Shown here: in pieces, positions 23,984 through 57,373 of the stretch | Layout of the letters: every line of letters starts with the position of its first letter | Numbering within the stretch: position 1 is the first letter of the stretch | Origin: Schmidtea polychroa | Lineage: Eukaryota | DNA: 64,000 bases | Direction of reading: 5' to 3' | NCBI GenBank assembly: GCA_044892525.1 | Contig: CM097885.1 | Location: forward strand, 244,900,001-244,964,000 | Made by a program: the position numbers and the translations under genes | The notes under the pieces: model-generated | The model's input: only the letters and a program-made list of their open reading frames with translations | Database searches by the model: none | Told to the model about the DNA's origin: nothing

Positions 23984-25262
23984 TGTTAGATGATGAGAGT
24001 AGGCCCATCACTACATTTACCCTAGACAAATACTATAGGGCAGGGCCCAAAAAATATAGAGTGAACGTGTACGCCGAAGAGCGTAGATAGATAGATGTTC
24101 CACAAACAACCCAATTCCAGGCAAACCAATTCAATCCAACGATCTGCTTATTTATGTGGAGCCGAGGTTAAACAGATGAGCCAGAAAATTCAAAATATTG
24201 ATTCAAAATATTGACAATCATGTGTTGACTAAATTCATTATTTACTTTATGCATCCTGTGTCTTTTGTGACTATTCTTTATTTTATTTCGTTATTGGTGT
24301 ATATAGTAATCATTTTTATTCTATAGAATTTTGTACATATTTTTGAGTAGATTGTTAATTTTATTTAATATATCTTTCTGTATACATATTTAATATTTTT
24401 ATAAAAGGGTAAATTAAATCATTAATAATTAGTTTTATAAGTAAAGATAAATAATATAACAATAAATTTTAATTAACTCTTAATTCAATAACAATAAAGT
24501 TTAATTAATTTTTAATAAACAGCTGAAAATATTTTTGGAAATTAATAAGTGTCTTAAAAAACACTTTTAAAATGAAACACTTGTGAAATAAAATAGAATT
24601 ATAAGTATGAAAATAATAATAAATTAAATTATAAGTATTATTAAATAACAGCTGCCCAAAAAATCTGTATAAATAGCGATAAAAAATTAGTTTTAGTCGC
24701 CCAAAAATCTTGCGAAAAAAGCTCTTATTCAAAGGTTAATCCTTCGAATAAATTAATAATCGAATCAGCACAGAACGATTCACATACTAAACGAAACATA
24801 CTAAGGTATAACACGCATACATAACAAATAACAAATACATATATCTTAACAAGCATCTTAGTAGAAGGAATTGATAAATAATTGTTAACACTCTTGGAAT
24901 TGGAATTTGTGTAGATTTGGTAATTTTTGATCATAATAAATTTTTATATACACTTATTTGTTCTGTTTTGATGTATATATAAGAACCAGCAAGTTAAGTG
25001 TTCCCGAATATCGAGACCTCAACATTTGGTGCCGCGAACCGGGACTTTAAAATCAATTATTGTTATTCACAATTTGGGGGATAGGAATTGAGATCAGAGG
25101 GTTATAGTATTTTATATTGGGAAAATATATTTATAAAATAATATCATTGATCAATTTTAAATAAATAAATTCAGTTTTGAAAATTATTAAATAATTCAAA
25201 AAGATAAAATAGATAATCAACCCGAAATAGTTTACAATCTCAGAAATAGAATAGTCTATAGG

Positions 25263-25711
25263 ATGAATAATAATAATTACATAAAAATTTTACCAGTAGA
25301 ACCATATAGAGGAGAGCCTGAAAAGTTCGACGATTTTTTCACTGAGATCGCTCAGTATGCAGAAGCTTGTGGTTGGACATCTGATGAGTTAAAAATGAGA
25401 ATCCCACTATATTTAAAAGGTTATGCGTTACAGGCATACAATAACTTAGAATGCAAAGGAAATAATTTTGATCAACTCGTAAGATATCTGAGAGCAGAAA
25501 TAGTAATCAATAGCGATTTACAAAAAATAAATGTTCAAAAATTTAGAAACAGATATCAAGGTACTAGAGAATCAGTTGGTGAATATGTATATACAATTAC
25601 GGAGTTTGCGAAAAAGGCATTTGGTGCAGGCGAGCACACAGCAAAATTAATTGAGGATCAGTTTTGGAATGGTATACAAAAATATTTATATAAAGCATTA
25701 ATTATGGTAGA
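25263..25711 (+). pseudogene. Truncated Gag N-terminus
   Basis: LPVEPYRGEPEKFDDFFTEIAQYAEACGW...RIPLYLKGYALQAY aligns by eye with the element B Gag (LPVKAFSGDPGEFPEF...RLPIYLKGLAREKY). It is cut at about 25712 by an unrelated insert. Confidence 0.85.
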
Positions 25712-26346
25712 TAGCGGCGTATTTACCTGTAGGCAGATTAGGCATTTGCCTAGGGCCTCGGATTTATAAGGGCCTCCAAAATCCAAAAAAAAAATTATAA
25801 TTTTTTAAAAAAAAAAAAAAACAAAGTCGTAGCATTTCAGATTTTAAACTTTAACAGTTTTAAAATTTTCAGAGTTAAAACCTTTTTGGGCCTCAATTTC
25901 TATAAGTAAAAGAATTTGCACATATTCAAAAAGGAAAAAATAACAAATAGGATAAAAGCAAAATCCAAGCAAGGTTTGAATTTTTATATTTTGAATATAA
26001 TATATTTTATTTTGTAAAGGCCTACTAATTTTATTTTATAAATTGAATTTGAGGCCCCACGAATAGGTTTTAAACTCTGAAAAATTAAAAAAAAAATTAC
26101 AAAAAAAAACAATAGTCCGTAGCATTTCAGATTTGAAACTTTTTATTTACAAAATAAAATTGGTAGGCCTTTAAATACAAAATAAAATTATATGATACAC
26201 AAAATAGAAATATAAAAATTCAAATAGGAAAAAACAACAACCAAGCAAGCTTTGAATTTGTATTTGTATTTTGTATATTTCTTTTCCAAAACAGAAAATG
26301 CATATGCAATTTCATTTCATTTATTGTTTGAATTTTAACGGCCCAG
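25712..26346. mobile_element. MITE-like insert replacing the interior of element C
   Basis: Abrupt loss of Gag homology at TAGCGGCGTATTTACC. Internal GGCC-rich repeats and an imperfect end TTAACGGCCCAG; no TSD found. Confidence 0.45.
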
Positions 26347-29742: not shown

Positions 29743-31285
29743 TAGGCTTGCCAGATAAAAATGTCGAAAAAACGTACATACGAAAATTGATCAGCATAAA
29801 AAAGAAAACAATTAAAGATACATGTTATGTAATTTTTTTTATTGTTATAATTATCAGTAAATATGTTATATATAAAATTATTAAATTATTTTAAAAAATA
29901 AAATTATTTAAAAAAAAATCACTAAAATAAAAATTATAATATTAAATTAACACTACAAAATGTCACGGTAGGCTTGCCAGATAAAAATTTCGAAAAAAAC
30001 GTACATACGAAAATTGATCAGCATAAAAAAGAAAACAATTAAAGATACATGTTATGTAATTTTTTTTATTGTTATAATTATCAGTAAATATGTTATATAT
30101 AAAATTATTAAATTATTTTAAAAAATAAAATTATTTAAAAAAAAATCACTAAAATAAAAATTATAATATTAAATTAACACTACAAAATGTCACGGTAGGC
30201 TTGCCAGATAAAAATTTCGAAAAAAACGTACATACGAAAATTGATCAGCATAAAAAAGAAAATAATTAAAGATACATGTTATGTAATTTTTTTTATTATT
30301 ATAATTATCAGTAAATATGTTATATATAAAATTATTAAATTATTTTAAAAAATAAAATTATTTAAAAAAAAATCACTAAAATAAAAATTATAATATTAAA
30401 TTAACACTACAAAATGTCACGGTAGGCTTGCCAGATAAAAATTTCGAAAAAAACGTACATACGAAAATTGATCAGCATAAAAAAGAAAACAATTAAAGAT
30501 ACATGTTATGTAATTTTTTTTATTATTATAATTATCAGTAAATATGTTATATATAAAATTATTAAATTATTTTAAAAAATAAAATTATTTAAAAAAAAAT
30601 CACTAAAATAAAAATTATAATATTAAATTAACACTACAAAATGTCACGGTAGGCTTGCCAGATAAAAATTTCGAAAAAAACGTACATACGAAAATTGATC
30701 AGCATAAAAAAGAAAATAATTAAAGATACATGTTATGTAATTTTTTTTATTATTATAATTATCAGTAAATATGTTATATATAAAATTATTAAATTATTTT
30801 AAAAAATAAAATTATTTAAAAAAAAATCACTAAAATAAAAATTATAATATTAAATTAACACTACAAAATGTCACGGTAGGCTTGCCAGATAAAAATTTCG
30901 AAAAAAACGTACATACGAAAATTGATCAGCATAAAAAAGAAAATAATTAAAGATACATGTTATGTAATTTTTTTTATTATTATAATTATCAGTAAATATG
31001 TTATATATAAAATTATTAAATTATTTTAAAAAATAAAATTATTTAAAAAATAAATCACTAAAATAAAAATTATAATATTAAATTAACACTACAAAATGTC
31101 ACGGTAGGCTTGCCAGATAAAAATTTCGAAAAAAACGTACATACGAAAATTGATCAGCATAAAAAAGAAAATAATTAAAGATACATGTTATGTAATTTTT
31201 TTTATTATTATAATTATCAGTAAATATGTTATATAAAATTATTAAATTATTTTAAAAAATAAAATTATTTAAAAAATAAATCACA
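29743..31285. repeat. About 227-bp tandem array (6 full units plus 1 partial), each unit starting with the hAT TIR
   Basis: TAGGCTTGCCAGATAAAAA at 29743, 29969, 30196, 30423, 30650, 30877 and 31105. Confidence 0.95.
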
Positions 31286-40770: not shown

Positions 40771-41802
40771 GTTTCTCTAAGTTGGTCGGGCAGTTCAAAA
40801 ATAGATTTATCAACTTATTGGTTAAGTGGTACTTGGGATATAATATCCTGTCCCGGTAGAATAACTAATGGAACTATGGATTCGAGTGGAATCGAGACTC
40901 AAGAAATTATTTATCAAATTACAATTCGTAGAAAGACTCTATTTTATACAGTTATCCTTATTCTTCCTTGTTTATTAATTTCTCTACTTACAGTCTGTGT
41001 TTTCTATTTGCCAGCTGATGATCACCATAAAATGACGCTGACTATTTCCATCCTTTTAGCATTGATTGTATTTTTCCTTTTAATTAGTAAGCTACTTCCT
41101 CCTACTAGCACTTCTATTCCTCTTATTAGTAAATACTTACTCTTCACTTTTATTGTTAACATCATAGTTATAGTAATCACAGTGATCATCATTAATTTGA
41201 ATTATCGTACCCCAAGAACTCATTATATGCCATCATGGGTGAAAAAGGTTTTCATAGAATTTCTTCCAATTGTACTTGGAATGAGTAGACCAAAGCATAT
41301 CGAACAGGAGCTTATAGACAAAAAGAAAATCGGTGTTATTTCTCCTGGAATGATGAGGCAACAGAAGAAAACTTTGAATTCAACCAAACCGGTAGTGAGC
41401 GCATTTGATAAGTTGAAACCCAGCTCGAAACGTTTGATAAAAATGGTTGATTCTCAAATTTCAATGGGACTCATGAATGACAAATTTAAAAGATATTCCA
41501 ATGATGCTGACAATGGGATTTGGAAATCTCAAAATAGTAAAATTATGCCATCGACTAGTTGTAATAAAATTACAAATAATTCGTTCAATTTTTCTCGTAA
41601 TTGGGAGGATATTGAACATGTTCCAAAGAGGTCCTATACAGATAGCATTTCATCAAAAAGCGACAGTAGCACTCGACTGACAGATGAAATGAATACAAAT
41701 TGGCTATTTCGCGGTTATGAAATTAATCATGAAATGAGGCAGGCCATTCTTAGTATTAATTTTCTTTCCTCCCATACAGAATCCCAAGGAGAATTTTCAA
41801 TG
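40771..41802 (+). CDS. nAChR exon 6 (loop C without vicinal Cys, M1-M3, cytoplasmic loop); beta1/UNC-29-like non-alpha subunit
   Basis: IDLSTYWLSGTWDII...IRRKTLFYTVILILPC...KMTLTISILLALIVFFLLISKLLPPTS...NYRTPRTHYMP. No YxCC, so non-alpha. Confidence 0.93.
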
Positions 41803-41847
41803 GTTAATAATATTTTATTGTTAAACTGAATGAACTATATTTTCTAG

Positions 41848-42003
41848 GGAAAGCAAGATTGGCAGTTCGTGGCGTCTGTAATTGACAGGCTAATGCTGCT
41901 TATATTTTGCACAGTTACACTGATTGGCACGGCCGCGTTATTTCTGAGAACTCCTTATTTCTTTTCATTGTTTGATCCTACTGCTGAGGTTAATAATTGT
42001 TAA
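41848..42003 (+). CDS. nAChR exon 7 (M4, stop)
   Basis: GKQDWQFVASVIDRLMLLIFCTVTLIGTAALF...NNC*, after a 45-bp GT-AG intron. Confidence 0.9.
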   Translation, partial: GKQDWQFVASVIDRLMLLIFCTVTLIGTAALFLRTPYFFSLFDPTAEVNNC

Positions 42004-42179: not shown

Positions 42180-43268
42180 TGTTAGGTTCGATGGGTATGT
42201 CTTCGAACTAACACAAAAATGTTCTATCTGACTCCACGTAAATAATTTATGCGCGTAGGTATAAATAAACAAGAAATATGATTTAAATATTTATTTTTTT
42301 TTAATTAAAAGATTATTCACACGTTTAAATAGATATATATATATAGGTACACCACGCTGCTTTCTCTAAGTATAGAAAACGGTTATTCAAACCGCCCTGA
42401 AGAGTGTTACTAAGTATCAAGGCTGGCCCTAAATGCGCCAACAGCCCGATATAGGTGAAAGGAAAAAGAGAACGGGACAATCACCAAAATTTACGCTATA
42501 GAGTTAACCCAGAAATTGGTTAACTCTTTTCAAATAGTTATTGATAACGACACAACACAAAAATACGTGCTGACGTTATGATATCCCTTATTTGAAATTA
42601 CTTAAATTTGTTAAAATATAAACCGATTTGAAAATTACTTATAACTATTTAAATAATGATAAATACTAACTGATTTAATATCTTTACCAAATAACGTTAT
42701 AATAGATAATCCACAAAATTTGCTTTCGATCCAATATTTCCAATACAAATTCTTCAATTAGATTGTCGATAAGACTAAATTCCCAAAATTCCAAAACTAA
42801 ATTTTCCTTTAATCGATGAAAATTATGCCAACTGTCACTTCGCCGAAAATTAGTTTACGATAAAACCAAATTTCCCAAAATTCCAAAACTTGACGAGAAT
42901 TAGTTGGTTGCTAAAAATAGAATTGACTTCTTCTTCTCTAATTTCAGACACTGCGGTTTTTTGCCTTCTCACTTCCTCCTTCCTTCTAATTTTTATCTAT
43001 TATTTATACTAATTTATTTTACGTAATTCTATTAATAGTAATTGTTTAATTACTATTTTTATTATATATTTTAAATAATTTCTATAATTCTATTTTTAGT
43101 AATTATTTATTACCAATTATATTTTAGTTTTAATTTTAGTATTTACTTTCTATTTTTGGTAATTTTAAAATACTATTTTTATTTTAATCCTAATTTTGGT
43201 AATTAATTATTATTTTATTTATTATCTAATTTCGAACGTTCATTTCCGGTTCCTACTGAACCCCAACA
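42180..43268 (-). repeat. 3' LTR of element B (1089 bp)
   Basis: Matches 55953-57054; PPT adjacent. Confidence 0.96.
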
Positions 43269-43280
43269 TGTCTTCCCCCT
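43269..43280 (-). promoter_or_regulatory. Polypurine tract of element B
   Basis: Minus strand AGGGGGAAGACA immediately before the 3' LTR. Confidence 0.8.
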
Positions 43281-43504
43281 AACAAGATTTTCGTCCCGAA
43301 AATTAAAGCGGTAAAGATAAGACAATTGCAGCCGATACAAAAAACAAAAATAAATAAAATGAATCACTGATTAAAATATATATAAAGCAATCAAAGTCAA
43401 AATCAAAAATTGTTAAACAAAATCAAGAATCAGATTAATCAAATGTTGTTCATAAATTGAGGATGTAGCAAATTGCTAGGTCCATTGAACACATAGCCGA
43501 ATTG

Positions 43505-45667
43505 CTAGTATTTTCTCCTTTTCATGACCTTGGCACTTTCGTTACGGATCCTTTGTTCTACAATGTCAGGTCTGTAACTGACCACCAAAGTCTCCCGTGT
43601 ACTTACCTCTTTGTACACAATTGAGGAGATGATATATGAGCCCTCATTAGCCTCCAATACTCCGTAATCGGGGAAATTGGATACGGCTACTTCATGGATT
43701 GGGCCTCCGTCGTATTCCTTGATACGCGGTTTCCATTTGCTGTCGGGTCTCTGCCACCAACTAGGATCTTCTCTGTCGAGATCTTCCCGTATTTTGATTG
43801 AGTTGCCCCTTCCGACGAACTCGCCTTCCTTCACGATGATCGGCTCTCCTGTAATCGTGGGTTCACTCTTTGTTGCCAATATCTTGGTCAACGCGGGATC
43901 TGGTGGCTGATAGTGAGTTTCTAGGAGATCGTCATCCTCATCCTGGATGGATATCCTAGGCATTTTCTTTTTCGTACTCTTAGGAATCTCCTTTTTCCTT
44001 TTTGCGGAGATAGGGACAGTTTTCTCCTTGTCCTCTTTCTGGGGGAGTTTCTCCGTTGTTTTCTTTTTAAACTTCAAATCTTGTAGCTTAAGTAATGGTG
44101 CTACAGCTTGGGGTAACGTTCCTCCTTCTGCTCCTTGTTTGGGTTCACCCAACGGGGCCAATGCTTTCAGGATCTTGGTGACCCGTTCAACTAACTTTTC
44201 TGCTGGCTGTGGTTTGTCTATTTCCATTTTAGCCGAATTCACCACTCTACCGTCATTGGTAAGGGTGACTTGGAGGCAGTTATCGTCTGCACTCTCACAA
44301 GTGGCATAGTCGTCTTCATCAGCAATTGAAATGGCTGGCGGCGACAAGGAATCTTCTTCCACTATTTTCAACAACTTTGACCTGGGGATATCTTCTTTCA
44401 CATAGCTCTCCATAGCTAGAGGTTTCTGCCTGCTTGAGGTTCCGGGTTCCATCTGCTTTATTTGTGAAGACACCACCTCTTTCCGGGTGTCTGGTGAAAT
44501 GTCATCAACCCAGATATCTCGTAAATTGTCGTAAATCTCCTTAATGGTTGTGACATCATTCTCCGTTTGTAGGTCCGAGAAGTGATGTGCCTCTTTACCG
44601 GTGACTGCTTTTGCTAGATATGCCAAACGGTAATACCCGTTGCATTTCTTTAGTTCCCTACTTTCGAGGCATTTAGCTGCGCCTAACTCACGAATTCCGA
44701 GTGCGCGCTGCATTGGGAATCTGATTACTTCTAATAAGTCCTTTACTAGTAATCCCACGATGATCTTCCCATCGCAGATTTTTCTAATTCTTTCGGCACA
44801 GTCTTCTCCGTCGAACTGTCCTGTTATTTGTTTCTCGGTCATACCATGCGCATGCGATTGGTAATGTTTGACCTGTGCTCTGGGGGTGACTCTCGTGTTG
44901 AGTATTAGATCACCATTGAAGTGTGAGATCGAGATGGCCACGATTGCCGGTTTCAAAAATTGTCGTAATGTAGCGTAGTGAGCTGCTACGAAGATGGTGA
45001 GGTTATCCTCTTGTCTAGGGTCCATGCGCTGTCTAACGAAAGACTTGAATGTTTTAATGTCGTTATCGTTGACATTATATGTCCAGTTTGGGTCATTAAC
45101 CCATCTGGTTTGTGTTTCTCTGTGAGGTTCCAGAATTTCCATTGCTATGATGGTATCTATACCTTCACATAACAGTGAGATGTTCTTTTCCCTTCCATCC
45201 CCGTTTTCTATCTCGAGGGTTGTGTGCTTTTGCAGCAAAATGGGGTTTGTGGCGCCAGGAACATAAACCGTAAATGGTTTGTTAATGGCGTGTATCCACA
45301 GGTGGTTGGTCAGACTATGTCTGCCAAACTCAGGCATGACATCGGTGAGCCTAATACTACCGTTATGCTTACCCGGGATTCTTGAGATGATCATTTGACG
45401 CTTTGGGGCCTCGTCAAATTTAAAATTATTGGGTATGCCTGAACAATGACCGTAAAACCAGTGCCTTTGGCCTTTTCTACTTTGCTCCATAACCTGCTTC
45501 TCCAGGTTTTTATAAATAAGTTTTTCTTTTAGTAAGGTTGTAGCACGTATAATGCTATGTTTTCCTTGATATTGGGATATTGGGTGGCTCTGCATTCCTG
45601 AAATAAAAATCATTAACCATAATATCAGATATACTGATATGCCATAATAGGCTAAAAAGATATGCAT
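43505..45667 (-). CDS. ORF3 accessory protein with a degenerate DEDDh (REX4/ISG20-like) exonuclease domain
   Basis: Intact 720-aa ORF between pol and the PPT. ISISHFNGDLILNTRVTP..VKHY...HGMT...GKIIVG...RLAYLAK...ENDV resembles the REX4-like fold. Confidence 0.7.
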   Translation of the reverse strand: MHIFLAYYGISVYLILWLMIFISGMQSHPISQYQGKHSIIRATTLLKEKLIYKNLEKQVMEQSRKGQRHWFYGHCSGIPNNFKFDEAPKRQMIISRIPGKHNGSIRLTDVMPEFGRHSLTNHLWIHAINKPFTVYVPGATNPILLQKHTTLEIENGDGREKNISLLCEGIDTIIAMEILEPHRETQTRWVNDPNWTYNVNDNDIKTFKSFVRQRMDPRQEDNLTIFVAAHYATLRQFLKPAIVAISISHFNGDLILNTRVTPRAQVKHYQSHAHGMTEKQITGQFDGEDCAERIRKICDGKIIVGLLVKDLLEVIRFPMQRALGIRELGAAKCLESRELKKCNGYYRLAYLAKAVTGKEAHHFSDLQTENDVTTIKEIYDNLRDIWVDDISPDTRKEVVSSQIKQMEPGTSSRQKPLAMESYVKEDIPRSKLLKIVEEDSLSPPAISIADEDDYATCESADDNCLQVTLTNDGRVVNSAKMEIDKPQPAEKLVERVTKILKALAPLGEPKQGAEGGTLPQAVAPLLKLQDLKFKKKTTEKLPQKEDKEKTVPISAKRKKEIPKSTKKKMPRISIQDEDDDLLETHYQPPDPALTKILATKSEPTITGEPIIVKEGEFVGRGNSIKIREDLDREDPSWWQRPDSKWKPRIKEYDGGPIHEVAVSNFPDYGVLEANEGSYIISSIVYKEVSTRETLVVSYRPDIVEQRIRNESAKVMKRRKY

Positions 45668-45790
45668 GAGTCTTCTAAAAGATCTACATATGCTGAATTT
45701 TAATGCTACCTGGAGCTCTACGTAAATATAGATTTTAATATATATATAAATATTTATATATGATTTTTCCCTCGGGGGAGTCTGTAATTG

Positions 45791-48700
45791 TCATAATTGC
45801 GACATCAGTACTCCATCGTAAGCCCTTATGGCTTGTCTAAAATATAGCTTGGTCCAAATACCCATAGCTATCAGTGTAGTTACTAGCAATAGGACGGCTG
45901 ATACCGTAATCCATACCCCTATGGGTACTTTCAGGATATATCCTGTATTAAAGTTTGTGATGGCATTACAATCACAACAGTTTGTCAAGTTTGGAGTCGT
46001 TGGACAAGATATTTGTTTGATCGGTGGCAACTGTCTAAGATGTTGCCACATCGTGGGATGTATCACCATGTTTTCTCTAACTACTTTTGGGGGTATTTCC
46101 GTTATTACTGGCTGTTTCAAAGGTAATATCTCCTCGAATACCTCGAACCACCTATCGTCCTCCCGTTTCCTCGGACTATAGTATATAACTAGAACCGAGT
46201 ATTCTACTGACTGATTTAGATACCTTTCTTGGGAGGGAGAGTTCTGGTCTAACCATAATGTTCCTCTCGTGGTTGATCCGTCTAGAATGCTGATTTTCAC
46301 CTTCTCCTCCCTGTTAATTCGCTGACTAAACTTTACTTTATCCCTTCCGTAGGATATCGATATGCGATTTGTGAAATCCGCCGTCCGTAGGATCCAATTT
46401 GATACGTGATAGGTATACCAACCATTCCGATATAACCTTGATGCTGCGATATGCAGTTTATAATCCGTCTCGGCTTTTAAGTCATATAATTCCCACTCTT
46501 TTTCTTCTGAATCGAGCTGGCGGACCCGTAAGTACTTGTTGTAGAAATGTAAATTGAACTTTGTAGCATTATCGCACGTTGTGAGTATGCTAATTCCATG
46601 ATACGTTCTTATAAAATGTAAGTGTTCCACTTGCATAGCCATCGGCTGAAAATAGGCCTTTCTATCCCTTTTTGCCATTGCCAAAGTCATCATACAGCTT
46701 ATTATCAGCAAAAAGGTTACCGATTTTGGAACACCCCTTGATCTCAATGGGTATCGGTGTTCTTGTGGTTCTTCGGTAGTGTTTGGTTTCACTTGTTTCT
46801 CTGGTGCTCTTACTTTTGAATTTCCAGAGATTCCTTTTGTTGAGATTTCGCACTTTTTACACCGATTAGCATGCACCATTATTGGTTCTGCTTTTCTGTT
46901 GGCTACAAGTTGTAATATGAGATTTGTGTCTGTGGTTCTCAATACCTCATATGGCCCTTTGAAATTGCGCATGAGTTTTGGTGATAAGCCTTTCTTGTTA
47001 TAATGACTTTCCAACATCACCTGGTCTCCAACCAATATGCCATGATCCTTGGCTTTTCGGTCATGATAATCTTTGGATGCCTCCTGATTATATTTTATAC
47101 TGAGGCCTGCTCTAGCCCATGCTTCCTGCATTCTTTCCCGCATTTCCATTAGATAATCTTGCTGATCCAAGTACTGTGTTGCTTTAGGAAAAAACAACAG
47201 ATCTACTGGCATTTTACTTTGTCTCAAATACATTAGGTAAAATGGTGTTTCACCTGTTCCTTCGTGTACTGCATTTCTATATGCAAATAAACAGGATGGA
47301 ATGTGGATATCCCAATCCGTTTGCCCTGAATTTACATATGATGCTAACATATTAGCTAATGTTCCATTAAATCGCTCTACTAGCCCATCCGTCTGTGGGT
47401 GATATGGGGAAGTGTTCAACTTTAAAACTCCGAAATAATCATTTATTCCTTTGAGCAAATTACTCATGAAATCAGCTCCCCTATCCGTTAATAGCTTCGT
47501 AGGTACTCCATACCTAAAGACAATTTGTTCAACGAAAATTCTAGCTATCGTATCAGCTTTGTGATTAGGCATCGGGTAGGCTTCTGGCCACTTAGTCAAG
47601 TAATCACAGAACACTAAGATGTACTTGTTTCCGCTATTGGATTCTTTAAATGGCCCCAACACGTCCATTGCCGTCATTTCCATAGGTGTAGATGGTATTG
47701 GCATCGGCTTCATTGGCACGTGTGGTTTCTTTCCGGTATTTCTTCTGGTGATACAGATCTTACATGTCTGACACCAGGTTTTAACCTCTTGTTTCATGCC
47801 GGGCCAAAAATATTTTTGTTTTAACCTTGACAATGTTTTTCTGGATGACAGGTGGCCTCCTAAGGCTCCATCGTGATACTGCAACATGAGTGCTTCACGG
47901 TATTTCTTAGGGACCATTACAACATTGTCTCTTACATCTGAATATTTGACTAATCCTTCCTCCAGCACAAACTTGTCCTTATTCTTTTCCCAGTATTTCG
48001 TGAATTCTGTGGGCACGTATTTCGCTTCTAAGGCTTGTCGAATGACATTGATTTCTTCGTCAGCTTTTTGTGCCTCCATTAAATCAGCTAGCCGGTTGGC
48101 TTCTCGAGTCAGTGTGAAGATAGTCCCTTCGAGACGTCCTTCCTTCACATCTTCTGCCTCCTCCTCCTGGTCCATTCTCGATAAAGCATCTGCATTTCCA
48201 TTGTGATCTCCTTTTCTATAATGGATTTCTATGTCATATGGCTGTAAAATTAATGCCCATCTGACCAGTTTTGATGTATCCATTGTATGTTTCGTCAACC
48301 ACTGTAATGGTCTATGATCGGTATACACTATGATCTTTCGACCCCATAGATAAGTCCTAAACTGGGTTATAGCATACACAATTGCTAAAGCCTCTAGTTC
48401 TATCACTGCGTAGTTTCTTTCATGCGGTTTTAATCCTCTGCTAGCGTATGCAATTGCATACTCATCTCCTAGGTCATCTCTCTGACCTAGCACAGCACCT
48501 ATGCCCCGAGTGCTGGCATCTGTCATAACCAAAAATTGTCTCTCAAAGTCTGGAAATCGCAATATAGGTGGCTTGATGAGTTTTTCCTTGAGCATATCAA
48601 ATGCTTCTTGCTGTTCTGTTCCCCACACAAATTTGACATTTTTGCCTTCTAACTGCGTGAGTGGAAAAGCTATAACCGAAAAGTTTCTAATGAATTTTCT

Positions 48701-49118
48701 GTAGTATCCAACTAGACCTAAAAACCCTTTGATATGTTTAACGGTTTTAGGCTCCGGGAAATTCTTTACCTTTTCGACATTAGCTGGGTCGGGTTTAACC
48801 CCGTCTCGTGATATGATATGGCCAACATATACCACTTCTGGTTCGGCCCATTTACATTTGGTCGGTTTCACTTTCATGTTGGCGTTAATCAACCTCTTGA
48901 ACACATCTTCCAAATGTTCCAAGTGTTTTTCCAAATTTGGCGAGAATACTATAACGTCGTCAATGTATACCATCGCATGATGTACATCCATGAGCATCAA
49001 ATTCATTGCTCTTTGAAATGTGGCTGGAGCTCCGGTGAGTCCAAATGGCATTACGTTATATTCGTAATGACCCATACTCGTAGAAAACGCTGTTATTGGT
49101 ATAGTCTCATCTTTTAGC
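45791..49118 (-). CDS. Polyprotein part 2: RT core, RNase H, integrase, C-terminal membrane protein
   Basis: MPFGL, YIDD, TDAS, ELEALA, HHCC, D-D-E (AMD, TDRG, VERFN), GPY. The frame continues upstream of the Met as FYQIKLKDETIPITAFST. Confidence 0.95.
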
Positions 49119-52100
49119 TTAATTTGATAAAATCCCTTTTTGGGCGTCCATTACTGAGAAGAACCTAGCGTTTCTCATGCGTCCATAGATATAATCTAAC
49201 AATGGCAATGGATGGCTATCTTTGCATGTTGCTTCGTTAACCATGCGATAGTCGTTACATAATCGTACTGATCCATCCTTCTTGGCCACCACTATCATTG
49301 GTGATTGATATGGTGATTTACTATGCCTGATTATGCCATGTTTTAACATCAGTTTCACCTGTTTATCTACTGATTCCTCCAGACTGAATGGAATACGGTA
49401 TGGTCTCAACTTTATAGGTTTTGTATTGGTGAGAACAATCTCATGTTCTAACAAGTTTGTCTTTCCCAGATCATATTCATGTTTCGCGAATACCTGGTCA
49501 TATTTCCTCAATAACATATTTACTTGAATATTTTCTTTTCTAGTTAGCACTTTGCTGTTTGCTGTAGGTGCATCGTAGTACTCAATGTCTGGATCTCTTT
49601 CTTCTGCCTTTACGGTGAGTATTGACCCTTCTCCCGTAGCTTGTGGTTCGTTTTGTTTCCAGATTCTGCCCACTCTGGTATCTGGATATAAGTAAAGTGG
49701 TTTAATGTCCAGATTGGCTACCCTGATTGGTATTCTGCCATTGACTATTAAACCTACGCTATGCGTTACTGGTATATTGTATTTCTCCGAGAATTTTTCG
49801 TTTGGTTCGAATACAACTTCACCTTCCCAATTATTGCTTGTAGCTACAAAGCAAACTGTTTCCGCTCTGGGTGGTATGATAGTTGTATGATCTATATAAG
49901 CCGTATCATCGTTGTAAATTTTCCTCTTTTTACCTCGTGCTCGGATTAACAATCCAGATGCACAATCGAATACTACTCCTCGTAGTCTTTTTAGGATGTC
50001 CATACCTAATAGACATTCGGCTGGGAGACTTCTCATCACTATGATGTCGTGATGGAGCTCCTGGTCACAAAGCTTAATCTGGCATGATAATAACCCTATT
50101 ACGTTTAATGAGGATCCGTTTGCTCCTGTTAATTTTACTCCTGCCGGTTTTGGCGATTGCAGTTCATGATGGTTTAACAATTTAGCTTCAATTATGGTAC
50201 CATCTGCTCCTGAGTCTATCACCGCATTAACTGTATGTCGGTTCACTCTTATTTTTATCATTGGCTTTTTATCCAAGTTCACTGGGTTGTTGACCATCAA
50301 GATAGTATCGTGCGATATACCGATTGTATTTGCCCTCGTTTGTTCTGCTTCCAGTAATTCAGGATCACTCAGTTGAGGATTATACTCTTTGAATTTAGCT
50401 TTAATTGACTCTAACGCTTCCTTTGGATAGTGCACTTTAAGTAATTCTGGCAATGTTGAGCATGTCAAATTATTAAATATGGTATCTTCACCGATTTTCC
50501 ATTGGTGTCGTCCTGTTCTGAGTGTTGTTTCCCTCGAGTGTTCCCGCCCTTCGTTTGGTGCGGATGGTAAACTCCTCAAAGTTGGCAATTGTACGTATCT
50601 TGGACTTCTCTTGAATCTGGGTGACCTTATGTCGAATTTTTGGTCGGAACTGTCATATTCTCCTTCTGAGGACTGTTTTCTCACATAGATTTCCTTTGAT
50701 TGGTCATATGGAGGAAGATATTCCTTGAATCTCGATTTTCTTTGTTGCTGATTCGGTTTTTTGTTGTAGTTCTGTTTTCGTGATTGATTTGATCTTGAAG
50801 ATGTCTCACGAGAGCCTCCATTACCTCCTCCCTTTGAATTGTTATCGTCCCGATAACTCGAATACTCCTCCATTTCTGTTCCAATTACTTCATGTTTGAC
50901 CAAATGTTTCTGTCTAATTTCTTTAATTTCTTTTCTGTGATGTTTGAATAATGCAAACTCTGCACACATAGGACATAGTCCTAATAGCAGTTTCCATGAC
51001 CATCCTCCAATTTTGAATATGCTATATGTTGACATCAGTTGTGTAATTATCAGCTTTAAAATTACAAATATTGCGTAAATTCCTGAACATCCCGCGACGA
51101 AAATACCAAAATTGGTGAATCGTCCCCATATTTTCATCATTACGTTCTTTGCTGCTTCTTTATAGTGTTCCGGTCCAAATAATAAATTGTAATCTGGTCG
51201 TATCAAATTATCATGATAAATTGTTCTTATAATTTCCGTGATACCTCTTTCTCTGATTTGTGGGAATAGCAATGTCCTCCTTGCTTCCTCGATATCGTCG
51301 GGAGTATAGATCCCTCTTTTTGCTAATTCATCTAGTGACTTGAATTCCAGATTATCTTTTAATTTAGTCACCTCCAAGGTCTCTACCCGTTGTGTAGATG
51401 GTTTTCTTTCCGGCAGAGATATCCACATGTCATTTATTTTGTATAATGGTGATATTGCCGGGTTGCATATAGCTGGTTGAGGTTTAGCGTTTTCCTCAAG
51501 TAACTTTCTGGTTACTGGCATAACAAATCTCAATTTTCCTTGGTAAGATACTGGCAGTTCTAGAGTGCATTGATTAAATCTGGCTAATTGTACTTCAACT
51601 GGTTTACACTCATAGCTATATATAGCTTCTCCCATGATTCTGCCAAACATTCCATCTTCCAATAACATTGGAGTAACCAACTCTGGGTTAACGATAGATA
51701 TTGCTAATCTATTTCGGACTATTTCACGATTTAGCTTACAATCGTTTAGTATCACTTCTTGATACATATCTTGCATTTGTCCTTGCAGATCATGATATAA
51801 ATAATCTACCTTATTATTTATATAATTCGTGATTTTGATATCCTTTACATGTAGGACCTTGGAATTCCGGATATATTCTCTGGACAGGAAAATTCCTTTG
51901 TAGTTCGTCTCGTATACTCTTTTCCCACATTTAGTCCTTTTATCTTTTCGGACAAATCGAATTGCTTCCGTCTTGTCTTCCGATATCAATACTAGAGGTG
52001 TGTTTTCCTCTCCGATATCTTCCTTCTCTTGTTTGTTGATTTTCTTCAACGTTTTTGCTTTATCCCAAACCTTTTCTGGATTCTGGGAGTCCCGATATTT

Positions 52101-55100
52101 AGTTCCATTTAATTTTCTAAAAGGAATTTTCTTGAGGAAAGCCAACTCACAATGATCTCTCATTTGTTCGTAAATTAACGTAGTGGTTCCCGTTTTACAA
52201 CTACCGAACTTGGCATTGCATTGCGGATGTGCCATCAATTTTCCTGTGGCCACATCGAATGTTCCCTCGTATTCTCGTAGCTCCACTGAGTAATCTTCTA
52301 TGTCTACCACATAGGAAACTAAATTGCTACCGCGAATTTTCTTTCTACCTTCGCATGTTCCGTCTGAAGCGATTGTTCCTCCTCGGGTGATTGTTATTCC
52401 CAAGGTTTTCCCAATTTCTGCTGAAATTGATACCTCGTTGTCTATCCTCACACTTCCTTTTCGAAATGCATCTAAGCAATCTTCGGGCATTATGTTTACC
52501 GGCCTTGGTATTAATGTTGCGGATAGAAAAGCAGAATAGCTATTACTACCGCAATAATATTCGAACGTAGCTCTCTGAACTCTACAATCCTTTATCGTGG
52601 TTCTATAAAATTCACTCTCTTGGTAGACATAATATTCTACCTTTTCCCCTTGATGAACCTTCTCGGGATACGCCTCTTTGCACTCAATTGCATCTACTAG
52701 CGAATATACCCGAGATAGTTTAGGGTTTCCACAGTCAAATACTGTTAATGAATTTGTTTGTTTTAATATGCCCATCATCACTAGGAACATCAGGATCATG
52801 CTTGTCATGTTTCCTGTGCCTGGACTACCATTATTTATGGCTTCTTCTACGACTTCAAATCGTGGTTTTGGAATCGTTTCTTTTTCCCAAAATTTGTTTA
52901 CGGTCATCCATACCTCCAGGTAATAATCTACCATTTCGACTATTTGATCGATTTCTCGTTCTATAAGCCTTTTATCATCCCCTATCCGGGCCAAGGCATT
53001 TTGAATTAACAATGATAAAGATGTTACCACTTTCCCTCTTGTTAACCCTTGCTGCACGAATGCTTCTATGACATCCTGGGTATCTCTTGTTGTTACATCT
53101 TTGGATACTCTGTCCATTGTCTTCTTGACCTCTTTTGCTATTTTCTTTACTTCGATCCCCTTGATTTTTGGAATTCTCCATTCGGGCCTGATAATCCCGA
53201 TCATTTGTTGTATACGTTGCCACAATAACGACCTTTCTGCTGTTGTCTCATCTCCCGCCTGGTCGTCCATTTCTTGAGCTATCCCTGCTAATGTTTTTAA
53301 CTGAATTTTCCGAATCGTTTCTGGATTTAACTGCTCCTTGGGTGGAGGTTTCATCTGATCCTTTCTAGGACGTCCTCGTGCATTTTTTTTCACTTTCTCC
53401 GGAGGTTTTTCATTCTCCAGATTTGTTACTGCTTGTGACGTAGTAGCTCCTACGTTTTTTTCTCCTGGGTTTAATCTGATATATTCTGAGAAGTAATCTT
53501 CCTCGTCAATGTCCACCATTTGACAGGGATTAATTTCCTCTAGTCTTATTTCCTCAATTTCTTCCGCAATTTGGTTTGCTATATCTGGCAGTCTCATTAA
53601 TGACCACTGGGACTCTGGTGGAGTTACTGGGATGATCATTACCGTGGTTGTTGCCAGCGGTAGACAACCCACATCCACTAAATATTCATCGTCATCCACT
53701 TGCCTGCCATGGACCATTATCAGGAATATACCTGTAGTTTGATCGGTGGCAATTACATCTCTCCTCAATATTTTAACCTTGATATAGCAATTATAAATCA
53801 TTGTTAATGGTTCTTTTCCCATCATTCGCACGTCTAGATTAATGTTGCCTTGTCTATCAGGCTGACTTCGGATAGCTTTCCCATTTTTCCTCATCAGCGC
53901 TTCAATTTGCGTCTGAAATGGGCTTGTTTCCTTTACCACTGGTAGTATAAGTGGAATTATTGCTTCCAATAAATCTACTGGTATTCGTAATACTAACATC
54001 CAGTCCAGTATTTCCTTTATAGTTTTACCATCTCGTGGGGATTTCTGCAATTCCAACCCTAGTCGCTGGGTTAATTGTTGAGTTTCCTCCAATCTCTCGA
54101 TTTCCATCTGAGTAATCAAGAATACGCTATCTTGATCCATTACTGCCACTGGCTTTGGTGCTCTCTTTGCTGTGAGCTTCGTCACTCTACCTGGGAGTAT
54201 CCCATTCTGTAGAAGTGTTTGGTTTGCTTCTAATTTTATTCCACATAAGTATAAGTCATATCCTTGATGCTTAATACTTGTCAATGTTTCCGTTAATTTA
54301 TCGGCTCGACTTCTTACATTTATATCGAGGTTATACTCTTTATCCTGTGGGAGTTTTATATTGAGCTGGGCATCTTGGAGATCCCACTCATGTTCCAAAA
54401 GTTTTCCTAATTTCCTTAGGATTTTGTACGTGTCGTTATGATACTTTGGATCATCTTCGACCTGCGATATCAGTTTTACTACTGTATCGATTTCGTGAAT
54501 TTTAATTTCTGTTTCTCCCAATTTTCCCAATTGTCTGGCCAGCTTCTGCTGGTACTCATATCTGGAATCCACCAGTTTTAAACATTTTGTTAGGGTATCT
54601 GACCCTTCTTTTACCTTTGCTTTCCCTGTCAAGGTTCTATCGAACTCGCTTAGTATGGTGGCCATACTAGGTTCATCATCGGAACTCTCCTCTGATTCCG
54701 TTTCCTGAAGGTCCTCTCTAACGGAGTCCTTTTTTCTGAGATACTCATCTCTTCCAACTTCTACCATGAAGATGGTGCCTTCTTGGTCGGTCAATCTAGC
54801 CAACCTATTCTTTTCTTCCTGGATTTCCATTTCCAGTTGTTGCAGATACGTTAACCCTTGATCCTGGTTAACCATGAAAGTTGTCTTAGACTTGTTCACA
54901 TTACCCTTATCGGTATTTTTATTGAACTGACTCGTGTTTCCACTCTGGTTCTGAGGACATGACCTCATCATATGTCCGAATTTCCCACATCCGTGACATT
55001 TTATCTTTCCTGATGAATTTACATCATCTCTTTTGATTGTACTAAAATTATTGCTGTTCTGAGGACTTCTAGTCTTGCAGACCGCAGCAACATGTCCCTT

Positions 55101-55853
55101 TCGCTTACATTTTTCGCATTGCAAATTCTGCACTCTACAATTTTCCGCACTGTGGTTATTCCGTCCACATTTGGTACATTGTATACTTTTACGATTGTCC
55201 ATAATTTTCCTACTGGTACAATCTTTCGCTATATGCCCTTTTCTATGGCAATTGAAACACTCTACCGGTGTTCTTTCACTGTTTACCAGGAACATGGTTG
55301 ACTTTTCCAAGCTGCTTTCAATTACGACAGCTTTCCGTGTCAATTCGTCAAAATCGTCGCTAGTATGTAATATTAGAGCGTTCCTCATTGTAGGAGTAAG
55401 TCCTGCCCATAGCTGATCCTTAACTAACAATTCTGTTGGCTTTGCCCATGTGGTTTTTGGTCCAAATGCTCTTTCAGCAATTAAAGATAGCTGGTGTGCA
55501 AATTCCCCCACATGTTCATTGGCATTCTGTTTTCGATGGTAAAATTGTTGTCTAAATATTCTTCCCGCATCTCCGGGCAATATTCGAGCAGTCATTTGTT
55601 CTCTCATTTCGGCCCATGTTTTCGGTACTTGAGCAACTGGTAATGCCATAATGTCATTATATTTTTCTCTTGCCAGCCCCTTCAAATATATAGGCAGCCT
55701 TTGTATCATGATATTATCTGGATAGGCGTATGCTTTGGCCATCTGATAATATTCAGACATAAACTCTGGGAATTCTCCCGGATCACCGCTGAATGCCTTT
55801 ACGGGCAGAGCGGGATATCTGGCAAATGCATTTACATTAGCTTCCTCTGCCAT
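49119..55853 (-). CDS. Polyprotein part 1: Gag (4 CCHC), 2 ubiquitin-like domains, AT-hook, class-III-like envelope glycoprotein, aspartic protease, RT N-terminus
   Basis: 2244-aa ORF with four CX2CX4HX4C motifs; signal-like MTSMILMFLVMMGIL then LTVFDC, a Cys-rich ectodomain and a TM; protease VIDSGA; RT start KKDGSVRLCNDYR..N...KDSHPLP. Confidence 0.93.
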   Translation of the reverse strand: MAEEANVNAFARYPALPVKAFSGDPGEFPEFMSEYYQMAKAYAYPDNIMIQRLPIYLKGLAREKYNDIMALPVAQVPKTWAEMREQMTARILPGDAGRIFRQQFYHRKQNANEHVGEFAHQLSLIAERAFGPKTTWAKPTELLVKDQLWAGLTPTMRNALILHTSDDFDELTRKAVVIESSLEKSTMFLVNSERTPVECFNCHRKGHIAKDCTSRKIMDNRKSIQCTKCGRNNHSAENCRVQNLQCEKCKRKGHVAAVCKTRSPQNSNNFSTIKRDDVNSSGKIKCHGCGKFGHMMRSCPQNQSGNTSQFNKNTDKGNVNKSKTTFMVNQDQGLTYLQQLEMEIQEEKNRLARLTDQEGTIFMVEVGRDEYLRKKDSVREDLQETESEESSDDEPSMATILSEFDRTLTGKAKVKEGSDTLTKCLKLVDSRYEYQQKLARQLGKLGETEIKIHEIDTVVKLISQVEDDPKYHNDTYKILRKLGKLLEHEWDLQDAQLNIKLPQDKEYNLDINVRSRADKLTETLTSIKHQGYDLYLCGIKLEANQTLLQNGILPGRVTKLTAKRAPKPVAVMDQDSVFLITQMEIERLEETQQLTQRLGLELQKSPRDGKTIKEILDWMLVLRIPVDLLEAIIPLILPVVKETSPFQTQIEALMRKNGKAIRSQPDRQGNINLDVRMMGKEPLTMIYNCYIKVKILRRDVIATDQTTGIFLIMVHGRQVDDDEYLVDVGCLPLATTTVMIIPVTPPESQWSLMRLPDIANQIAEEIEEIRLEEINPCQMVDIDEEDYFSEYIRLNPGEKNVGATTSQAVTNLENEKPPEKVKKNARGRPRKDQMKPPPKEQLNPETIRKIQLKTLAGIAQEMDDQAGDETTAERSLLWQRIQQMIGIIRPEWRIPKIKGIEVKKIAKEVKKTMDRVSKDVTTRDTQDVIEAFVQQGLTRGKVVTSLSLLIQNALARIGDDKRLIEREIDQIVEMVDYYLEVWMTVNKFWEKETIPKPRFEVVEEAINNGSPGTGNMTSMILMFLVMMGILKQTNSLTVFDCGNPKLSRVYSLVDAIECKEAYPEKVHQGEKVEYYVYQESEFYRTTIKDCRVQRATFEYYCGSNSYSAFLSATLIPRPVNIMPEDCLDAFRKGSVRIDNEVSISAEIGKTLGITITRGGTIASDGTCEGRKKIRGSNLVSYVVDIEDYSVELREYEGTFDVATGKLMAHPQCNAKFGSCKTGTTTLIYEQMRDHCELAFLKKIPFRKLNGTKYRDSQNPEKVWDKAKTLKKINKQEKEDIGEENTPLVLISEDKTEAIRFVRKDKRTKCGKRVYETNYKGIFLSREYIRNSKVLHVKDIKITNYINNKVDYLYHDLQGQMQDMYQEVILNDCKLNREIVRNRLAISIVNPELVTPMLLEDGMFGRIMGEAIYSYECKPVEVQLARFNQCTLELPVSYQGKLRFVMPVTRKLLEENAKPQPAICNPAISPLYKINDMWISLPERKPSTQRVETLEVTKLKDNLEFKSLDELAKRGIYTPDDIEEARRTLLFPQIRERGITEIIRTIYHDNLIRPDYNLLFGPEHYKEAAKNVMMKIWGRFTNFGIFVAGCSGIYAIFVILKLIITQLMSTYSIFKIGGWSWKLLLGLCPMCAEFALFKHHRKEIKEIRQKHLVKHEVIGTEMEEYSSYRDDNNSKGGGNGGSRETSSRSNQSRKQNYNKKPNQQQRKSRFKEYLPPYDQSKEIYVRKQSSEGEYDSSDQKFDIRSPRFKRSPRYVQLPTLRSLPSAPNEGREHSRETTLRTGRHQWKIGEDTIFNNLTCSTLPELLKVHYPKEALESIKAKFKEYNPQLSDPELLEAEQTRANTIGISHDTILMVNNPVNLDKKPMIKIRVNRHTVNAVIDSGADGTIIEAKLLNHHELQSPKPAGVKLTGANGSSLNVIGLLSCQIKLCDQELHHDIIVMRSLPAECLLGMDILKRLRGVVFDCASGLLIRARGKKRKIYNDDTAYIDHTTIIPPRAETVCFVATSNNWEGEVVFEPNEKFSEKYNIPVTHSVGLIVNGRIPIRVANLDIKPLYLYPDTRVGRIWKQNEPQATGEGSILTVKAEERDPDIEYYDAPTANSKVLTRKENIQVNMLLRKYDQVFAKHEYDLGKTNLLEHEIVLTNTKPIKLRPYRIPFSLEESVDKQVKLMLKHGIIRHSKSPYQSPMIVVAKKDGSVRLCNDYRMVNEATCKDSHPLPLLDYIYGRMRNARFFSVMDAQKGILSN

Positions 55854-55931
55854 TTGATTTTCCAGTTTTACTCTGGCTCTAGTTCCTAACGCTATTTTGT
55901 TTTAATTCAATATATACCCGCTGATAATTTA

Positions 55932-55949
55932 ATCACGTCGGGCTCACCA
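55932..55949 (-). promoter_or_regulatory. Primer-binding site, tRNA-Trp
   Basis: TGGTGAGCCCGACGTGAT, 3 nt from the LTR; 1 mismatch to the canonical tRNA-Trp PBS TGGTGACCCCGACGTGAT. Confidence 0.88.
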
Positions 55950-55952
55950 AAA

Positions 55953-57054
55953 TGTTAGGTTCGATGGGTATGTCTTCGAACTAACACAAAAATGTTCTAT
56001 CTGACTCCACGTAAATAATTTATGTGCGTAGGTATAAATAAACAAGAAATATGATTTAAATATTTATTTTTTTTTTAATTAAAAGATTATTCACACGTTT
56101 AAATAGATATATATATATATATATATATATAGGTACACCACGCTGCTTTCTCTAAGTATAGAAAACGGTTATTCAAACCGCCCTGAAGAGTGTTACTAAG
56201 TATCAAGGCTGGCCCTAAATGCGCCAACAGCCCGATATAGGTGAAAGGAAAAAGAGAACGGGACAATCACCAAAATTTACGCTATAGAGTTAACCCAGAA
56301 ATTGGTTAACTCTTTTCAAATAGTTATTGATAACGACACAACACAAAAATACGTGCTGACGTTATGATATCCCTTATTTGAAATTACTTAAATTTGTTAA
56401 AATATAAACCGATTTGAAAATTACTTATAACTATTTAAATAATGATAAATACTAACTGATTTAATATCTTTACCAAATAACGTTATAATAGATAATCCAC
56501 AAAATTTGATTTCGATCCAATATTTCCAATACAAATTCTTCAATTAGATTGTCGATAAGACTAAATTCCCAAAATTCCAAAACTAAATTTTCCTTTAATC
56601 GATGAAAATTATGCCAACTGTCACTTCGCCGAAAATTAGTTTACGATAAAACCAAATTTCCCAAAATTCCAAAACTTGACGAGAATTAGTTGGTTGCTAA
56701 AAATAGAATTGACTTCTTCTTCTCTAATTTCAGACACTGCGGTTTTCTGCCTTCTCACTTCCTCCTTCCTTCTAATTTTTATCTATTATTTATACTAATT
56801 TATTTTACGTAATTCTATTAATAGTAATTGTTTAATTACTATTTTTATTATATATTTTAAATAATTTCTATAATTCTATTTTTAGTAATTATTTATTACC
56901 AATTATATTTTAGTTTTAATTTTAGTATTTACTTTCTATTTTTGGTAATTTTAAAATACTATTTTTATTTTAATCCTAATTTTGGTAATTAATTATTATT
57001 TTATTTATTATCTAATTTCGAACGTTCATTTCCGGTTCCTACTGAACCCCAACA
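55953..57054 (-). repeat. 5' LTR of element B (1102 bp)
   Basis: Matches 42180-43268; longer mainly through an (AT)n tract. Confidence 0.96.
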
Positions 57055-57373
57055 GTTTGCTAGAGATTTTTCCCATGTCATTGGATATAAATGTTTCTAA
57101 TAGTGATTTACTACTTCTTTGTTGTCGAAAGGTACGAGTTCACTATTGCTAGAATGGAAACCATTATTCGGCGATTGATTCAAATAAGCCGTGATAAATG
57201 GAATGATCATTTCACAATGATTATTGAGAGCTAAAATTAAATATTAATCAGAGAATTGAGGAATGAGCTGGTGGAAAAATGAAATATAAAATACAATCTC
57301 TAATAGAAACATCCCAAGTTGAATAATTATTGTTGGGGTTATATGAAATTAACAATTATTAATCTGACTCCAA

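Follow-up and report, generated by a model that had tools for sequence, protein, structure and literature searches.

Envelope-bearing retrotransposons are usually pictured as carrying gag, pol and one env. The window, the whole 64,000-nucleotide stretch of Schmidtea polychroa DNA analyzed here, contains an element whose open frame continues past the integrase, and the question is what this extension encodes and what it might do for an element that has a fusogen of its own. An initial annotation had placed a second membrane protein there, with an ectodomain resembling fibronectin type III (FN3), unrelated to the fusogen and perhaps captured as a receptor-like attachment protein or immune modulator in a two-glycoprotein entry system. 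The analyses described below leave little doubt that the extension is a real, selected membrane protein of FN3 type. The GAG-ENV-POL type of element was already known; the FN3 membrane protein past the integrase has no description in the literature examined, and the second FN3 domain, the PDZ-binding tail and the spread over seven families go beyond the initial annotation.

The two LTRs of the element (Table 1) align over 1,089 positions with 1086 matches and 3 mismatches, and a GTTT target-site duplication borders them; the near-identity and the duplication indicate a recent insertion. Pfam matches give the domain order gag, CCHC, Monjiviricetes-type fusion glycoprotein, protease (PR), reverse transcriptase (RT), RNase H (RH) and integrase (IN). 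Those in the Gag-to-RT frame are PF24664 (Env, E 6e-87), PF03732, PF00098 and PF13975. The two LTRs with their duplication, the order PR-RT-RH-IN with a GPY motif, and a gB/chuvirus-type Env between gag and protease define the element as a GAG-ENV-POL errantivirus. The window copy is interrupted in RT, where two long ORFs overlap at 49119-49150; four other copies, found in a search of the species' own genome for copies and homologs (781 Mb, 1,012 contigs), have a single open frame of 3,366-3,369 codons. A candidate primer-binding site adjoins the 5' LTR at about 55932-55949 and resembles, we assume, a tRNA-Trp site. The neighbor of the element is a nicotinic-receptor-type ligand-gated channel gene (40771-42003, plus strand), and the insertion probably lies in the 3' untranslated region of that gene, about 176 bases past its apparent stop codon. 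Elsewhere in the window are a tandem repeat with a 227-base period (30000-31208) and gag-like ORFs of other retroelements at 2862-5051 (minus strand, with zinc knuckles) and 25191-25769 (plus strand).

Table 1. Features of the element and of its post-integrase protein. Positions are those of the window, except in the last row, which refers to a separate locus.
Feature	Position	Strand	Basis or remark
LTR element, 14.9-kb Ty3/gypsy errantivirus, GAG-ENV-POL type	42180-57054	-	
5' LTR	55953..57054	-	LTR vs LTR comparison
Gag (CCHC), internal signal, gB/chuvirus-like Env, protease, RT start	49119..55901	-	Pfam and hydropathy
Env signal	about 52796-52764	-	hydropathy
Env TM	about 51104-51048	-	hydropathy
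Pol: RT (3' part), RNase H, integrase (H2C2, rve, GPY)	46721..49150	-	Pfam
GPY	46957-46949	-	
YPLR motif at integrase end, just ahead of the signal peptide	46742..46753	-	
Start of membrane protein (VTFLL...)	46720	-	
Internal signal peptide (h- and c-region), predicted cleavage after residue 16	46673..46720	-	hydropathy peak
FN3-like domain 1, seven strands, L-x-x-L-x-x-x-T-x-Y motif	46382..46621	-	AlphaFold, Foldseek
WELYDLKAETDYKLHIAA motif	46495-46442	-	initially placed at about 46490-46443
FN3/Ig-like domain 2, seven strands	46121..46363	-	AlphaFold, VIA-align
YLNQSVEYSV	from 46222	-	
Pro-rich stalk, Cys cluster (CCDC), N-glycosylation sequon	45923..46120	-	pLDDT <50
CCDC	45979-45968	-	
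Transmembrane helix	45854..45922	-	Kyte-Doolittle 2.36 over 19 residues
20-residue cytoplasmic tail, YxxV motif, MSQL end	45853-45794	-	stop 45793-45791
Splice-acceptor-like site ahead of ORF3	ends 45598	-	
ORF3, ISG20/REXO4-like exonuclease domain	43505..45595	-	BLASTP E 2e-21 to family D ORF3
3' LTR, purine tract ahead of it	42180..43268	-	
Burro-like type I membrane protein, repeated Cys-pair beta units, ATLV tail	L089:5762-7204	+	

All the motifs quoted in the initial annotation fall within a single open frame of the minus strand, 45791-49150. The annotation had counted about 310 residues past GPY; the frame in fact runs for 385 codons beyond that motif, of which the first 76 or so belong to the C-terminus of the integrase and a linker, and the figure holds for the last 309, which are the membrane protein. 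Seven element families of this genome, called here A (the window element), A', B, B', C, D and D', have homologs of this extension at the end of the polyprotein, at 22-62% identity. A hydrophobic stretch with small residues at its end is found at the equivalent place in all seven, as is a transmembrane (TM) segment. The C-x-C of the stalk is conserved in A' and B/B', and the family A extension has sequons at residues 51, 169 and 244. These features suggest a type I membrane protein of predicted topology, with an internal signal that would be cleaved after residue 16, two β-sandwiches, a stalk, one TM helix and a 20-residue tail. The integrase itself closes, in every family read, with a conserved RYPLRS (RYPLRS in A', B, B', C and D'; YPL in 30 of 30 family A copies), which we take to recall the YxLR chromatin-binding motif of foamy virus Gag.

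The extension has at least 133 matches in its own genome, where scoring covered 128 of 345 candidates. In the best 81, the match spans no fewer than 301 of the 309 residues at 89-100% identity, and 64 of them are without a stop. Among the 30 best copies, GPY and the extension share an open frame in 27, and the upstream frame is open for at least 250 codons in 24. The frame on which the initial annotation had staked its reading is kept in other copies, and a second membrane protein after the integrase is supported. The dN/dS of the extension is 0.15 over 186 pairs from 20 family A copies, and 0.16 over 78 pairs from 13 copies when near-identical, interrupted and shortened copies are excluded; the two FN3 domains taken singly give 0.12 and 0.17. 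The integrase region gave 0.20 and 0.27 in the same runs, values above expectation, and for the pair B and B' the values are 0.19 (extension) and 0.02 (integrase). The extension is under purifying selection (dN/dS 0.16). Between A and B the integrase is 79% identical and the extension 27-32%; this faster divergence is expected of a host-facing surface protein.

The ectodomain was modeled with AlphaFold from a 31-row alignment of natural homologs of the same genome. The model has two seven-strand β-sandwich domains and a disordered stalk, with pLDDT per 10-residue block of 66-91 in domain 1, 72-90 in domain 2 and below 50 in the stalk. Foldseek returned 159 PDB chains at E ≤0.001. Each of the 12 best is a tandem FN3 segment of a surface or matrix protein, namely fibronectin, an axon-guidance receptor, LAR, integrin β4, tenascin, CD45 or IL-2 receptor β (E 5e-6 to 4e-5, 9-16% identity); cytokine receptors and tissue factor are also among the matches, and identity to every structural match is 18% or less. 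For domain 2, VIA-align gives Z 7.5-8.9, with FN3 level with GH2 (glycosidase) Ig-like and C2 domains. An independent model of the family C protein (7-row alignment) has three repeats, the first at pLDDT below 55; the middle one, which aligns with domain 1 of the window protein, matches FN3 chains at Z 8-9.3 and rmsd 2.0-3.1 over about 80 residues. Features in the ESM atlas likewise lean toward FN3 membrane proteins, at 0.89-0.92, a lead only, as the recognition value of 2214 is below the 2300 mark. The E-F corner of FN3 domains carries a Leu and a Tyr in an L-x-P-x-T-x-Y type signature. Both columns are invariant in alignment A3, and the strand-B Trp is present in C and D only. The Pfam fn3 profile matched none of the seven families. 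The models support an FN3-type fold, and Pfam fn3 membership is without support. The initial proposal of an FN3-like ectodomain, for which AlphaFold and Foldseek had been suggested as the check, is upheld by a predicted β-sandwich with tandem FN3 neighbors, and there are two such domains instead of one. Its unrelatedness to the fusogen also holds: against the element's own Env, hhalign gives a probability of 0.1% (E 0.52), and no fusogen is among the listed structural matches. Searches of the extension for RGD, WxxW and furin-type sites found none. Family A has one Cys across both domains, and the extension has neither the WSXWS motif nor the conserved disulfide pairs of class I and II cytokine receptors.

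Sequence searches with the extension were blank. No Pfam family matched; no homolog outside the species' own genome was found among 1.84 billion representatives, in a 5.8-billion set or in viral and metagenome contigs; and a PDB sequence search gave nothing below E 0.07. The 5.8-billion set holds entries of 61-2,000 residues, so polyproteins of 3,300 residues could not be found in it, and homologs may still exist in other flatworms, in nematodes or in bryozoans despite the blank results. Capture of a host receptor, as initially suggested, found no donor: profiles A2 and A3, run against 517 peptides from 30 of the 90 host fn3 matches, had best E-values of 0.006 and 0.009 against 0.08 and 0.03 for reversed controls, and the candidates were rejected. 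The lack of a Pfam family and of homologs outside the genome in the databases searched is what chance read-through, or an inert passenger sequence, would give. The open frame, the confident fold and an architecture kept across families at 22-37% identity argue against such a reading, which is refuted by a dN/dS well below 1 together with the conservation between families; its probability is close to negligible.

The families differ in length and in repeat number. Their polyprotein frames have 3,516 (B), 3,513 (B'), 3,334 (C), 3,419 (D) and 3,437 (D') codons; A' is about 42% identical, and the copies of it that were read are broken. Global identities of the extension among A, B, B', C and D are 22-37%, except B/B' at 62%, and those of the integrase end are 53-94%. 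There are two FN3 repeats in A, A', B and B' and three in C, D and D'. Among these FN3-bearing families, Env is found upstream in each of the six examined for it (A, B, B', C, D and D'). Weak matches below the Pfam cut-off lie between Gag and Env in D' (Bcl-2-like, L115:2-4501) and B' (ubiquitin-like, L114:2-4501), like those reported for Burro. A satellite derived from a fragment of the element forms long tandem arrays (G000:C3:106492018-106521361 and 107055922-107230950), which repeat about every 2.9 kb and include the 3' portion of the extension of family B.

Class I PDZ ligands have the consensus [ST]-x-[VIL] at a free C-terminus. All seven families terminate in such a motif, in the form [ST]-x-[VL]: MSQL in family A (28 of 30 copies, the other two stopping early), MTTL in A' (one copy), ETEV in B and B', ETRL in C, ETWV in D (6 of 12 loci, the rest interrupted or shifted earlier) and ETFV in D' (2 of 2). 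By comparison, 248 of 6,969 frame ends (3.6%) fit [ST]-x-[VL] in a background set of frame pieces of at least 30 residues from the loci examined. A Tyr is close to the end in every tail. The seven families are kin, so the tails count as one conserved trait and not as seven independent ones. Binding of the tail to PDZ domains is predicted from these motifs. In the part of the HTLV-1 literature considered here, ETEV is the PDZ-binding motif of Tax, is necessary and sufficient for binding the syntenin PDZ domains, and is linked to cell-to-cell spread (PMC12326194).

How the protein might be made was approached by scanning five families. In all five, the last in-frame Met is 26-60 codons ahead of the hydrophobic stretch, no position-conserved T-rich acceptor precedes the extension, and a T-rich acceptor lies 173-201 bases past the polyprotein stop, 1-3 bases ahead of the ORF3 ATG. 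Because the scan did no more than count pyrimidines, and crudely, the FN3 protein may yet have a spliced message. Four contig sets over 43300-57060, two of them only presumed to be RNA, span the extension, and none of the joints listed is of splice type; these sets carry no weight for or against transcription or splicing. Env has an internal signal ahead of it and one main TM region after it, which would leave PR-RT-IN back in the cytosol. The simplest reading would be a single polyprotein, Gag-signal-Env-TM-PR-RT-RH-IN-signal-FN3-FN3-stalk-TM-tail, threaded twice through the ER membrane, with signal peptidase releasing a small type I glycoprotein from the integrase end.

Our hypothesis for the function of this glycoprotein is adhesion and spread. 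Its two FN3 domains would face outward, and its tail would bind PDZ scaffold proteins that hold it at cell junctions or another polarized membrane. There it would bring producing cells or budding particles against target cells and so aid spread, while the gB-like Env would carry out fusion. Confidence in this role as an attachment protein is about evenly divided; the missing RGD motif counts against it. In the published work considered, planarian gypsy elements are de-silenced in differentiated tissues once PIWI control fails (PMC8532177); a route between cells would be useful under those circumstances, which are context and not evidence for the FN3 protein.

The signal that directly follows the integrase, with its counterpart after Gag, could instead serve assembly, by tethering Pol at the budding membrane while the ectodomain sorts sites or, as a block to superinfection, occupies the entry receptor. 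The family C tail also has a PPSY motif, of the PPxY class and late-domain type. The other families have no PPxY, and a tether would require no folded ectodomain kept under selection (dN/dS 0.12 and 0.17), so this explanation is improbable.

The post-integrase position is also occupied in a Burro-like family of the same genome, which has a 4,791-codon frame and 102 matches. Its polyprotein ends in ankyrin repeats, an internal signal, a Cys-containing β-rich ectodomain, a Thr-rich stalk, a TM segment and ATLV. It shares the signal, ectodomain, stalk, TM segment and [ST]-x-V type of tail with the FN3-bearing families, but the FN3 profile does not match its ectodomain. An identification of that ectodomain as a viral glycoprotein, a weak lead from atlas scores of 0.84 or less, was rejected. 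With an unrelated ectodomain in the same slot and the same kind of tail, it is the ectodomain that looks younger, or under less constraint, than slot and tail. ORFs downstream in the Burro-like element (L089:7862-9322, L090, L092) encode a TRAF zinc finger with MATH and a BIR with RING; there are also coiled-coil ORFs and a further ORF of 341 codons with signal and TM.

These comparisons bear on a third possibility, that the protein rides in the virion as a partner of Env, binding a receptor and triggering or chaperoning the gB-like fusogen, a task that falls to accessory glycoproteins in herpesviruses. Sharing a frame with Env, it would be produced in equal number, and the presence of Env upstream in each of the six FN3-bearing families examined for it fits. 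On the other side, a PDZ-binding tail would be of more use in the producing cell than in a particle, single glycoproteins of the chuvirus type are thought to act alone, and the Burro-like element has its unrelated ectodomain in this very slot. We regard a virion-borne partner as quite unlikely, and the adhesion reading is preferred to it.

The element carries other cargo. Family D ORF3 matches ISG20L2 (E 2e-9) and ISG20 (E 5e-7), and the catalytic motif of ORF3 looks intact in D and D' and degenerate in A and B; further ORF3 loci are L057:5268-6725, L105 and L033:1494-3818. Such cargo raises the possibility that the FN3 protein modulates host signaling or defense, the FN3 pair acting as a decoy for a secreted ligand or as a non-signaling partner and the tail competing for PDZ scaffolds. 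FN3 pairs double as cytokine-receptor modules, which counts against adhesion, and the layout of two FN3 domains, one TM segment and a short tail is that of two kinds of structural match, the class II cytokine receptors and tissue factor. FN3 proteins of cowpox virus, lumpy skin disease virus and a cyprinid herpesvirus were present in the viral library. The exonuclease-like ORF3, the sub-threshold Bcl-2-like region of D' and the TRAF, BIR and ankyrin cargo of the Burro-like element would likewise face the host. The cytokine-receptor signatures are nevertheless missing, with no WxxW and a single Cys in the family A domains, and a repeat number varying from two to three is easier to reconcile with an adhesion stalk or spacer than with a fixed elbow for ligand binding. 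A modulator is unlikely on this evidence, and adhesion remains the reading we favor.

Several known systems share parts of this arrangement. The GAG-ENV-POL errantivirus type has been described in PMC13524379, and Burro in PMC6431247. As presented there, Smed_errantivirus_1-6 (PMC13524379) have in common with the window element a Ty3/gypsy pol and a gB-type Env between gag and pol. Smed_errantivirus_4 is of similar length, about 14.9 kb, and is closest to the window Env (about 66 of 100 residues by eye, from the supplement of PMC13524379); the length suggests that the Smed_errantivirus elements may carry the extension. The word fibronectin does not occur in the main text of that paper, which, for two flatworm elements checked past the integrase, records only the lack of a chromodomain. 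Burro/GYPSM1 has an in-frame Env between gag and pol, one huge polyprotein and extra host-like domains, as here; the Burro section of PMC6431247 names ankyrin, BIR, MATH, BCL2 and other domains and no membrane protein after the integrase. Tandem-FN3 surface proteins (fibronectin, Robo, LAR, CD45, DCC/neogenin, class II cytokine receptors and tissue factor) are alike in predicted fold and type I layout, whereas the extension lies inside a retroelement polyprotein, is at most 18% identical to them and has no Pfam fn3 match, RGD, WSXWS or signaling domain. The sORF2 of the Drosophila MDG1 group, as described in PMC11952523, is likewise a membrane protein encoded by the element and distinct from Env, and it acts in transfer between cells; it is short, fusogen-like and replaces Env, whereas the window protein has about 290 residues, is FN3-based and accompanies Env. 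Bdelloid rotifer elements, in the account of PMC5408684, carry ORFs past pol that include membrane proteins and DEDD-type exonucleases, as here, but as separate ORF3s of DEDDy type and with no FN3 found, whereas the window ORF3 is ISG20/REXO4-like and of DEDDh type. The literature examined, these papers among it, yielded no description of an FN3 membrane protein past the integrase.

A wider proposal, which we offer tentatively and at somewhat less than even confidence, is that planarian GAG-ENV-POL errantiviruses including Burro reserve the end of the polyprotein for a second glycoprotein, one with a PDZ-binding tail. Its form in seven families would be a tandem-FN3 mimic of an adhesion receptor, making the junctions a contact site for passage from cell to cell, for example into stem or germ cells. 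If that is true, a retrotransposon would contain a two-glycoprotein polyprotein threaded in flavivirus style, and the hijacking of PDZ scaffolds, known from HTLV-1, may have a separate origin in an invertebrate retroelement. An abundant and recently active lineage keeps a selected second glycoprotein resembling an adhesion receptor in the same frame as its capsid, fusogen and enzymes. This second surface protein, shaped like a cell-adhesion receptor, may assist the passage of the element from cell to cell, and it gives a handle on the movement of such elements between cells in an animal whose body is maintained by stem cells.
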